64,000 bases of DNA, taken from Alphaproteobacteria bacterium (GTDB taxonomy: Bacteria; Pseudomonadota; Alphaproteobacteria; Micavibrionales; Micavibrionaceae). The notes under the pieces are model-generated. The model saw only the letters and a list, made by a program, of their open reading frames with translations. It did not search any database and was not told the origin of the DNA. The stretch lies in contig JAJRSA010000013.1 of NCBI GenBank assembly GCA_024279035.1, positions 91,889 to 155,888 on the forward strand. The letters run 5' to 3'. Position numbers and translations under genes: made by a program. Shown here piece after piece: positions 16,498 through 19,098 of this stretch. Within the stretch, counting starts at the first letter, position 1. Each line of letters opens with the position of its first letter.

Positions 16498-19098
16498 TTA
16501 CCAGCCGAATCCTGGTTCTAGTCCAGTATTTGCAACAACTTCTTGATTTATACCTTTATTTTCAAGTTTTTTTCGAAGAAGTTTAAAGGCGTTCATTTGA
16601 ATTTGGCGCACTCCCTCACGTGTTATATCAAATTTTTGAGCAACTTCTTCTAACGTATGTTCCTCATATCCACCCATTCCTTGTCTCATCATAACAATGT
16701 CGAAATGTTTGTCAGATAATTCAGAAAGTGCCTTTTGTAGTGACAGTGATGTATCTTCTCGCATAATAGCTTCGACAGGATCCGTATTGCCTCTTTGATC
16801 GGGAAAAGTATGTGCCAAAGAATAACTTGTGTCTTGTTGGTCATTTCCCAAAGGCACATCTATTGAAGAGGTTTCTTGTTTCTTCCATGTTATAATTTTC
16901 TCCACGTACGGAACAGACTTATTCATGGCTTCAGAAATTTCTTCTAGAGTGACGTCAGGTCCATGTTTTTGCTTTAGATCGTTGCAGACACGATTATACT
17001 TAGTGATCTTATCTCCAATATTAAGAGGTTGGTGTATGGTATTTGCCTTTTCCTTAATTTCTCTGTTTATTCTCGTTTTAATTACATGAGTAGCGTAGGA
17101 GGTAAAACGATATGACTTGGCCTTAGAATCTGTGTTATTCTTCATGTCTTTTCCAGACGCTATATCCTGTTTCTTTTTATCTGGATTAAAATACTTTACG
17201 GCATCCATAAGCCCCTCATTTCCCGATTGAATGAGATCTAGAAGAGAGAGTCCTCGGTATTGGTATTTATAAGCAACCTTGATGACTAGACGTAGATTAG
17301 AATGGAAGAGAATGTTAATTGCCTCTGGATCTTGTATAGATTGTATCTTTCGTCCAAGGTCAATTTCTTGCTCTGCTGTAAGGAGTGGAAACTCTTTTTT
17401 ATGTGCGGTAACCTCTCTCATATATTGCTGGAGAGCATTAGTTTCCTCTCTATAGGCACCCTGTCCTGCGCCTGTGTTGACCTCAGAATATACGGGGTCG
17501 ACGATTTTAATCGTGAGTGTAGATTTCCCTGTAAGGCCAGTCTTCTTAAGAAGTCCTTTGACAGCCTCGTATAACTCTTCGCATCCTAGGGCGTCTGCAA
17601 AGTTATTCAGGTGTAAGAGTGCCTCTTTGCGGTAATTGCTAATTGTAATAGGTGCTTTACCAAGAGTGGTGGCAATTTGTCCCGCTAATATTGGAGGTGT
17701 GTTAATCCCCAAAGAGTGCATCATTGTCGAACGAATGTTTGGCTTTAACGTATTCAGCCACGCTTCCAGATGAGGTTGGTTTTTGGGTTGAAGAAGGATT
17801 TGTTCATTGAGCTGTACCGCTTCATCAAATGTAGCACTTATATTTTGGTCTTCAGATTGGATTGGTTCAGCAATCTCGATGGCGAGTATAGATCTTCCTG
17901 TAAGGCTTTTTTTCTCTACAAGCGCTTCAACGGCCTCATATAAGCCCTGACATTTTTCAGTGTCTGCGAGAGTCTTTAATTGTGAGAGTGCATATTTACG
18001 GTATCCCCCAATCGTGACAGGCTTTTCATCAAGCTCGGAGGCAATTTGTTTTATTAAGAGGGGGGGTGTGTTGATACCCAAAGAGTACATCATAGCTGAA
18101 CTGACAATAGGATGTAGGGCATTCAGCCACCCTTCCAGATGAAGTTGGTTTTCAGGGCGCAGAAGAATTTGTTCGTTGAGCTGTGTCGCTTTATCAAATG
18201 CAGGATTCATTTTAAAGGGGAGAGCCTCACCTGTATGCCTTTCGGCGGATAGATAAGATTCAGCCTCTTGTGCTTGTTTGGCTATGCCGACCTCATTGAG
18301 TAGCTCTAACGTTTCTTCTGTAATGAATGCGAGGACAGGAGGTGTATCTGGTTTCCCAGTGGAGAGCGCATACCCTCCAAAGTCCTCGGGTGGAAACCAT
18401 AATCCTGTAGGGCTAAGTTTTAAGGCCTTGAGTGTAAGGGGGAATAATTTTATCCCCGTTGTGTCCAGTAGATCGGCAATTAGATCATACGCCACAAAAT
18501 AGCGTTCGGCGTTCTTATCGAAGTGGATTGTTTTCCATGCTTTTTGACTATGGCTGATGTCTTGAACAGTGGGTTGTTTTAAAGTTTTCGAGAGGCGACT
18601 ATTTGTAAATCGTCTGTCGGCGATGGGGAGAGGGAAGAGGGCATGATCTGTGTGTTGTCCTAGATGTACTTCATACTCACTATCGCTCATCTCTAAGAGC
18701 TCTTTGATATGATGATCAAAAAAGACCAGGTTTTTATCGCCATGCGCGCCTATGGTGTAGACAGCGTTTGAAGAGGGCATATCCCAGTGATCATGGAAGC
18801 GTACACGAAAATTTGTTTCTGTTGTTGGAATTTCAATAATGCCTCGTTGTTTTAATCTTTCTGCAATAAGAGGATAGGGAGCCATAAATCTGTGCCGTCC
18901 ACGATCGTCAGCTCTCTCGAGATCTTGCAATAGGACGACTTGATGGGAGCCTTTTAAGTATTGAAGGTCTAAATTATCACTCTTTCTCTTTGGGAGAATA
19001 TACTTATGTTTTGATATAGAAAGTTTGGGGCTATGTATATTAGGAGAGGCTTCTTCTACATTCTTAATGGATAATGCTGCAACGTTCAAAACAATCAC
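16498..19098 (-). CDS. Sigma70-family sigma factor with a ~550-aa N-terminal extension
   Basis: The C-terminal ~310 aa carry region 2 ([12 protein letters not shown]...[19 protein letters not shown]...[17 protein letters not shown]), region 3, and region 4 ([28 protein letters not shown]). It is a single 866-codon ORF with a GTG start (TTG three codons downstream is also possible). AT-rich. Confidence 0.8.
   Translation of the reverse strand: [866 protein letters not shown]
17461..18198 (-). repeat. Intragenic tandem duplication, 2 x 369 bp (2 x 123 aa), within the sigma-factor extension
   Basis: TTCCAGATGA...TTGTTC(A/G)TTGAGCTGT recurs with an exact 369-nt offset (17764 vs 18133). The protein units start [18 protein letters not shown] and [18 protein letters not shown]. 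Confidence 0.85.

Follow-up and report, generated by a model that had tools for sequence, protein, structure and literature searches.

A divergent sigma-70-family protein with duplicated N-terminal modules in a Micavibrio-related alphaproteobacterium

We analyzed a stretch of 64,000 nucleotides (nt) from an Alphaproteobacteria bacterium of the family Micavibrionaceae (assembly GCA_024279035.1, contig JAJRSA010000013.1, positions 91,889 to 155,888; hereafter the window), and focused on one gene that encodes an 866-amino-acid (aa) protein of the sigma-70 family with a very long N-terminal extension. The gene occupies positions 16498..19098 of the window on the minus strand, as do all the features of the protein given below, with a GTG start at 19098 and a stop codon at 16498-16500. 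The initial annotation, made from the sequence alone, had taken it for a single unbroken open reading frame (ORF), and the frame is indeed open without interruption for 2.6 kb over all 866 aa. A public gene call for the same ORF (P0001) has 863 aa and is 100% identical; it starts at a TTG at 19089, with the sequence AGGTGA a few bases upstream. Scans for promoters and terminators yielded no more candidates than in shuffled sequence. The same annotation had raised the possibility of a short isoform starting at an internal methionine near aa 563. This methionine is aa 560 (ATG at 17421), and initiation there would cut the beginning off sigma region 1.2. No Shine-Dalgarno sequence was found 5-10 nt before this ATG, and the nearest purine-rich stretch lies more than 20 nt upstream. 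We rejected the short isoform because a ribosome-binding site is missing at the right distance.

The protein comprises a leader, two copies of a module that we call A, two tandem copies of a second module that we call B, and a C-terminal sigma part (aa 547-866). A HMMER search with aa 1-546, in which all 1.84 billion representatives (~15 billion proteins) were scored, found only three relatives of the extension, and their architectures differ. P0025 (1114 aa) has the order A-A-B-B, then a truncated third B and a FliA-like sigma. P0026 (460 aa) has one B followed by an RpoH-like sigma with an RpoH box. In P0027 (423 aa), a Pro/Ala linker joins one A to a sigma-54 AAA+ activator domain that lacks a C-terminal helix-turn-helix (HTH). 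Proteins with different numbers of the B repeat, which the initial annotation had thought worth looking for, thus exist: two copies and a truncated third in P0025, one in P0026, none in P0027. The leader of the 866-aa protein (aa 1-55, 18934..19098) is basic, with an isoelectric point (pI) of 9.7, and is not conserved in P0025.

In the C-terminal part, four Pfam sigma regions score above their gathering thresholds. These are region 1.2 (Sigma70_r1_2, aa 556-586, 17341..17433; 24.3 bits vs a cut-off of 22), regions 2.1-2.2 (Sigma70_r2, aa 597-642, 17173..17310; E 5.9e-10, 39.2 bits vs 24), region 3 (Sigma70_r3, aa 697-757, 16828..17010; E 1.7e-9, 38.1 bits vs 25.3), and region 4 (Sigma70_r4, aa 790-843, 16570..16731; E 1.3e-14, 53.9 bits vs 24.1). 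Together they span aa 556-843, and aa 1-546 have no significant match, in agreement with the earlier view that the sigma domain is restricted to the C-terminal part. The presence of regions 2 and 4, plus 1.2 and 3, places the protein in the sigma-70 family. The closest solved structures of the sigma part are RpoS holoenzymes (PDB 7f0r_F, 163 bits), and the placement of regions 2.1-2.2 and 4 follows from alignment to RpoS as well as from Pfam. In this alignment, regions 2.1-2.2, which form the core RNA polymerase-binding surface, are very close to RpoS, and the recognition helix of region 4.2 reads TREGVRQIQ here vs TRERVRQIQ in the solved RpoS. It is therefore likely, from these similarities, that the sigma part binds core RNA polymerase and makes a conventional -35 contact.

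The assignment to a known sigma class is less straightforward. The closest NCBIfam models are those of RpoS (200 bits) and RpoD, and every NCBIfam equivalog cut-off exceeds the score of the protein. The two RpoS equivalogs give 199.9 bits vs 378.7 (TIGR02394) and 194.1 vs 394 (NF004207). The RpoH model NF005143 gives 112.8 bits vs 241 and covers only aa 551-641 (regions 1.2-2.2), and no RpoH-box segment of the Q-R-K-L-F-F type follows region 2.4, unlike in P0026. Sigma factors of groups 1 and 2 carry the motif YATWWIRQ with both Trp, where the protein reads YATHVIKT; the aligned RpoD and RpoS sequences show WW. As for ECF sigma factors (group 4), the presence of regions 1.2 and 3 above threshold sets the protein apart from them. 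In a full-length search, the nearest relative of the sigma part is RpoD, at 33% identity.

The most divergent portion of the sigma domain could be delimited by alignment to RpoS. It includes regions 2.3-2.4 (aa 661-690, 17029..17118), with the region 2.3 motif at aa 665-677 (17068-17106). The initial annotation had noticed the loss of both Trp of region 2.3, and alignment to the solved RpoS confirms that His-Val stands in their place and that the residues that read the -10 element differ as well. In region 2.4, the Q/T residues have been substituted, and the aromatics Y-R-F-T-S-Y that precede the lost Trp positions are retained. An insertion just upstream of region 2.3 had also been described. 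It exists, is rich in Lys and sits in the region 2.2/2.3 loop (aa 642-660, 17119..17175), but the RpoS alignment gives it a length of 19-20 aa instead of about 17. The Pfam match to region 2 ends at profile position 46 of 71 because this insertion follows.

The loss of the Trp residues had been read as a possible loss of promoter melting, a view that our comparisons do not support. The solved, functional RpoH has FAVHWIK at these positions and the solved FliA has YAVQRIR or YAGIRIR, such that working RpoH (H-W) and FliA (Q-R or I-R) proteins lack one or both Trp. The absence of these residues is therefore no argument against promoter melting. The relatives show similar variation, with SWQIR in the RpoH-like P0026 and GHRVR in the FliA-like P0025. 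Relative to E. coli RpoH, P0026 also carries 8 additional aa in the loop that holds the insertion described here. Compared with these sequences, H-V-I-K falls inside the range of working group-3 sigma factors, and is unusual solely in the context of a domain that otherwise most resembles RpoS/RpoD, of group 2.

Module B corresponds to the repeats of the initial annotation, which had described two tandem 123-aa units with an exact 369-nt period. A gap-free alignment of copy 1 (B1, aa 301-423, 17830..18198) with copy 2 (B2, aa 424-546, 17461..17829) bears this out, with 67 of the 123 aa (54%) and 244 of the 369 nt identical. The blastp alignment, also ungapped, gives 58% identity over 116 aa (E 1e-47). 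Tandem Repeats Finder did not report the array, as the DNA copies are 66% identical, which is below the reach of the program. The two copies differ by 0.33 non-synonymous (dN) and 1.11 synonymous (dS) substitutions per site. A dN/dS of about 0.3 at this dS indicates that both have been under purifying selection since an old duplication.

The units had been compared by the initial annotation to sigma region 4 or to a LuxR-type HTH, and the lines of evidence that favor such a relationship come largely from P0025. The B unit of this protein is 33-35% identical to B1 and B2 (E 1e-16 to 1e-20). It matches Pfam Sigma70_r4_2 over positions 8-54 of 54 (E 8.4e-4, 19.4 bits vs a cut-off of 25.7), and nine of the NCBIfam sigma models match it too, in every case through the region 4 at their C-terminus, with E 8e-5 at best; the P0026 unit weakly repeats two of these NCBIfam matches. 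The matches of B1 and B2 themselves are below threshold, and all fall at unit residues about 46-75. In Pfam, these are GerE (E 0.1, 12.7 bits vs 23.5) and HTH_38 (E 0.19), with the hints in B2 at unit aa 51-75; Sigma70_r4_2 gives no match in either copy, and GerE does not exceed its threshold. A profile search of PDB sequences with module B gave the LuxR-type HTH of RcsB (E 0.19). Using hhalign and a small region-4 alignment, unit residues 21-75 aligned with region-4 columns 5-60 with P 0.045, in the register that the initial annotation had proposed.

The structural evidence points in the same direction. We obtained an AlphaFold model of the B unit from a 4-sequence alignment, with a predicted local distance difference test (pLDDT) score of 75.8. 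Its helices (H3-13, H15-27, H30-40, H49-55, H63-81, H84-95) include, as helices 2-5, the four helices of region 4. When this model was searched with Foldseek against the PDB, the top ten matches were mostly region 4 of SigA/RpoS and of SigL, along with FixJ at rank 1, with target-normalised TM-scores of 0.45-0.56; these folds also recur often lower in the ranking. Three motifs are invariant in the four aligned B units: W-L-N-x-L-x-P, M-x-x-S-L-G-I-x-T, and Y-R-K-x-A. Within them, Y-R-K is a polar/basic group placed where the predicted recognition helix begins, and the rest makes up the hydrophobic core. Hence, the relationship of the repeats to region 4 or a LuxR-type HTH is upheld by the P0025 profiles, the in-register alignment and the fold matches, and homology to region 4 at the superfamily level is reached through convergent weak lines, by way of a 35%-identical homologue. 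We conclude, on transitive sequence evidence and on the model, that module B is an HTH derived from region 4, with one additional helix at either end and a conserved L-x-I-E-I strand. The 866-aa protein therefore carries three region-4-type modules.

Module A makes up most of the first 300 aa. The initial annotation had seen there one domain of about 300 aa that it could not assign; we found no assignment either, but the segment contains an internal duplication and consists of two modules of about 100 aa. Copy 1 (aa 56-160, 18619..18933) is 39% identical to aa 51-152 of P0025 (E 3e-24) and 39% identical to aa 44-110 of P0027 (E 5e-13). Copy 2 (aa 186-300, 18199..18543) is 28% identical to aa 183-292 of P0025 (E 3e-14) and also matches the N-terminus of P0027 (E 1e-3). 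The two copies are 24% identical to one another (E 2e-4 to 3e-3), and each is nearer to its counterpart in P0025 than to the other copy; copy 2 is an old, diverged duplicate. The AlphaFold model of module A (pLDDT 77.4) shows a small alpha/beta fold with the order b-a-b-a-a-b-b-a-a. No credible match to it was found in Pfam, in PDB sequence profiles, or with Foldseek in the PDB and BFVD. We considered a Phd/YefM-like identity, but the matches were weak (TMt 0.4-0.5, root-mean-square deviation above 6 Å) and we judged them unreliable. Module A is therefore apparently a new domain, and a clean candidate for a new domain family.

The taxonomic distribution of these modules is very narrow. Among 185,579 species genomes, one locus matched the module B alignment, and the same alignment found nothing in JGI metagenome contigs or in IMG/VR viral contigs; no further relatives came from these scans. 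P0025, with its A-A-B-B-sigma order, is encoded on an independent contig from a metagenome. P0026 has a nearly identical copy in an Alphaproteobacteria metagenome-assembled genome (MAG; JAMASZ010000103). The A/B family is extremely rare and confined to Micavibrio-related Alphaproteobacteria. Within it, B is seen without A on an RpoH-like sigma, and A without B on a sigma-54 activator. The two modules are therefore autonomous and portable, and combine with different proteins of transcription initiation. Both are also under selection. The two B copies are 58% identical in the 866-aa protein and 98% identical in P0025, whose copies agree at 330 of 333 nt, and identity between proteins is about 34%. 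Since the B pairs are more alike within than between proteins, the duplication appears to have arisen, or to have been homogenised, separately in the 866-aa protein and in P0025.

We made two observations in the surroundings of the relatives. A fragment of an IS6/IS240-type DDE transposase lies directly upstream of the P0025 gene (L003 2-478); this suggests that the A-A-B-B-FliA-like sigma genes move. In the 2.1-Mb genome of P0027, two ORFs without Pfam match (313 and 116 aa; L002 6220-7888) are placed between rpoD and the gene of the module-A-bearing sigma-54 activator.

The comparison with known systems shows partial likeness to several of them. RpoS and other group-2 sigma factors are the best sequence match for aa 547-866, and have in common with it regions 1.2, 2.1-2.2, 3, and 4.2, including TRExVRQIQ. 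However, the score is far under the cut-off of 379, the Trp are replaced, there is the 19-20 aa insertion, and no RpoS has a 546-aa N-terminal extension. In PhyR of Alphaproteobacteria, as here, a sigma-derived domain is reused for regulation, in that case as a decoy. Yet PhyR has sigma-2-like and sigma-4-like parts on a receiver and no working sigma, whereas here there are only region-4-type units, in tandem, on the chain of a complete sigma. Neither Response_reg nor a second sigma-2-like region is present in aa 1-546, and the Pfam PhyR_sigma-like model gave a trace match in the P0025 repeat (E 0.19).

Sigma factors with extensions in cis provide another precedent. These extensions are C-terminal in ECF sigma factors and N-terminal in BldN, SigC, and SigR', and build regulation into the sigma chain where otherwise a separate anti-sigma factor would act (PMC7826278), as we propose here. 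A survey of ECF sigma factors reports that N-terminal extensions are seldom seen and as a rule do not reach the length of the canonical C-terminal ones; the pro-sequence of BldN is removed by cleavage and the extension of SigC inhibits DNA contact (PMC7826278). In contrast with these ECF proteins, the protein studied here has regions 1.2 and 3, and its 546-aa extension is made of repeated folded modules. A different parallel is offered by position. Region 1.1 of primary sigma factors lies N-terminal of region 1.2 on a flexible linker, in the same place as the extension, but without relation to it in sequence or fold: module B is an HTH unit, whereas region 1.1 is an acidic DNA mimic, and Pfam Sigma70_r1_1 was not found in the 866-aa protein.

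Another sigma-70-family protein of great length, likewise with a large extension at its N-terminus, is MzaA of the MZA anti-phage system, and its model is the third-best NCBIfam match (159.7 bits vs a cut-off of 800, profile positions 524-704 of 726). The PADLOC match to MzaA covers positions 429-658 of 683, that is, the sigma part only. We rejected the reading as a defense system, as the sigma part alone matches, the extension has no PADLOC match and the Mza neighbors are absent. Effectors of the LuxR/FixJ/GerE type share with module B the class of four-helix HTH folds, but all matches to them are below threshold, and those of the P0025 unit to sigma region 4 models are better and more consistent than those to GerE, RcsB, or FixJ. 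Taken together, the sequence comparisons indicate that the protein is a member of the sigma-70 family outside RpoS, RpoD, RpoH, ECF, and MzaA. Our literature searches did not uncover the description of a sigma factor with additional region-4-type modules. A different kind of fusion was seen in P0020 (754 aa, Logan/ENA), where N-terminal ankyrin repeats precede sigma-70 regions 2, 3, and 4.

What could such a protein do? The explanation that we favor, with about as much confidence as doubt, is that it is a functional, divergent sigma factor with a regulatory modular extension whose module B derives from region 4. It would be a working but very divergent alternative factor of the sigma-70 family with a lineage-specific 546-aa N-terminal add-on. 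Its sigma part (aa 547-866) would associate with core RNA polymerase and recognize a -35 element of a fairly ordinary type, and the changed region 2.3/2.4, with the inserted loop, would imply a non-standard -10 element. The fusion itself is real, as P0025 shares the A-A-B-B-sigma order and P0026 has the order B-sigma. Module A may serve as a regulatory or interaction input, since in P0027 it stands at the signal-input position of a sigma-54 activator. The B units, tethered about 20 residues from region 1.2, would make extra DNA contacts near the promoter, and may thereby equip the sigma to which they are attached with one more determinant of specificity or anchoring.

This role of module B is the one we prefer, although we hold it tentatively and somewhat short of even confidence. 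Extra DNA contact is the default role of a conserved HTH, the invariant Y-R-K lies on the recognition helix, and P0026 has an AT-hook-like segment (KRAGRPRKV) directly after its single B unit (L001 7732-9114, residues about 140-150).

Several results weigh against this explanation as a whole or against its DNA-binding part. B1 and B2 have no significant profile match of their own. The pLDDT of the B model is lowest (56-67) exactly at the helix-turn-helix, and its Foldseek matches all have E-values above 1 at TM-scores of about 0.5. The core of B1 is acidic (pI 5.0) and B2 is only mildly basic, so that charge does not favor DNA binding. The 138 bp upstream of the gene yielded no motif that is repeated or palindromic. 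An N-terminal tether would also put the modules near the -10/discriminator or the main channel. It is there that region 1.1 autoinhibits, whereas activator-like HTHs are usually upstream.

The main alternative, which we consider somewhat less likely, is that the extension acts as a built-in gate, in which the B look-alikes hold the sigma off until a signal at module A releases them. They could do so by filling the beta-flap site, through intramolecular pairing with the genuine region 4 or with region 2, or by soaking up an anti-sigma-like partner. In function, such a gate would resemble region 1.1, the PhyR mimic or the extensions that some ECF sigma factors have. The modules lie about 20 residues N-terminal of region 1.2, which is the position of the autoinhibitory region 1.1 in group-1 sigma factors, and the acidity of B1 also fits such a role. 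The W-L-N-x-L-x-P / M-x-x-S-L-G-I core, which is the most conserved part of the units, corresponds to the helices with which region 4.1 holds the flap tip. Module A is at an input position in the sigma-54 activator, and there are precedents in SigC and BldN for N-terminal extensions that inhibit DNA contact or need processing (PMC7826278). However, B occurs without A in P0026 and A without B in P0027, such that B is not simply a transmitter for A, and the Y-R-K on the recognition helix is more easily explained by contact with nucleic acid.

An extended version of this idea, which we regard as improbable, sees A and B as a hitherto unrecognized plug-in system that controls transcription initiation in bacteria. 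In this scheme, A would govern both a sigma-70 factor and a sigma-54 activator, and the tandem B units would be intramolecular decoys through which three sigma classes are held inactive until released by A or by a partner. If true, the A/B system would be a one-polypeptide sigma/anti-sigma switch that evolved by duplicating part of a sigma.

We give little credence to the notion that the protein is a sigma-derived regulator that no longer initiates transcription. It would then regulate by binding DNA through several HTHs, or compete for core RNA polymerase, with -10 recognition and melting lost through the changes in region 2.3/2.4 and the inserted loop. Both Trp and the Q/T of region 2.4 are indeed replaced, the insertion splits the Pfam region 2 match, and the protein scores below every NCBIfam equivalog cut-off (for RpoS, 200 bits vs 379). 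But the solved RpoH and FliA work without these Trp, the preceding aromatics Y-R-F-T-S-Y are kept, and regions 2.1-2.2, 3, and 4 are well conserved. In addition, this loop also carries an insertion in P0026, whose RpoH-like domain is otherwise typical. Finally, a mis-assembled or fused ORF, or a recently acquired and functionless pseudogene, is very improbable: the gene is missing from the mfd-ispA slot of the closest relative available (L004), its G+C content is slightly low (41.4%, and 37.8% in the sigma part, vs 44.5% in the window) and its homologue P0025 adjoins an IS6-type transposase fragment, but the frame is open for 2.6 kb, the same domain order recurs on an independent contig, and the repeats, 66% identical in DNA, are too different for an assembly duplication and evolve under purifying selection.

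As a rule, the control of sigma factors lies with separate anti-sigma proteins or with short pro-sequences. In this protein, folded and repeated modules stand ahead of the sigma, and one of them is copied from the sigma's own promoter-binding domain. The same modules are found on three sigma classes (RpoS-like, RpoH-like, and FliA-like) and on a sigma-54 activator. If they gate or redirect the sigma, they would provide a compact, self-contained wiring of a signal into promoter choice, and a natural case of self-regulation through a copy of one's own domain. The general importance of the family is uncertain, as it is very rare and occurs in the poorly known Micavibrio-related Alphaproteobacteria.

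The sigma gene is convergent with mfd, their stop codons being 6 bp apart (16491-16500), and divergent from ispA/yciB. No terminator-like hairpin was detected between or around the mfd and sigma stop codons. The best named relatives of this Mfd (61-62% identity) are in Micavibrio and in unclassified Alphaproteobacteria MAGs. The L004 locus, where protein identity is 70-83% across the region, retains the genes for APH, aminotransferase, patatin, mfd, and ispA. Its mfd-ispA slot is occupied by an unrelated 254-aa protein, with no sigma at the locus, and the sigma gene is therefore accessory at about the genus level. The window has no second sigma gene and no further copy of A or B.

The rest of the window holds a few other elements of note. 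Part of a flagellar cluster (12-8151) lies 8-17 kb from the sigma gene, and includes FliF (12-1610) and FlhA (6052-8151) as well as a sigma-54 activator (4596-5957) that has a receiver domain and a Fis-type HTH. A class II lysyl-tRNA synthetase (23686-25701, minus strand) has a C-terminal DUF2000 domain (aa 537-671, Pfam E 2.4e-28), whereas the lysyl-tRNA synthetase of L004 is a plain 500-aa enzyme. Further along, a tRNA gene on the minus strand (34342-34414) precedes the stretch of lowest G+C (0.38-0.40), where three ORFs (35194-36162, 36259-37365, and 37453-37998) have no Pfam match. This low-G+C stretch after the tRNA gene (34342-37998) may be an integrated island.

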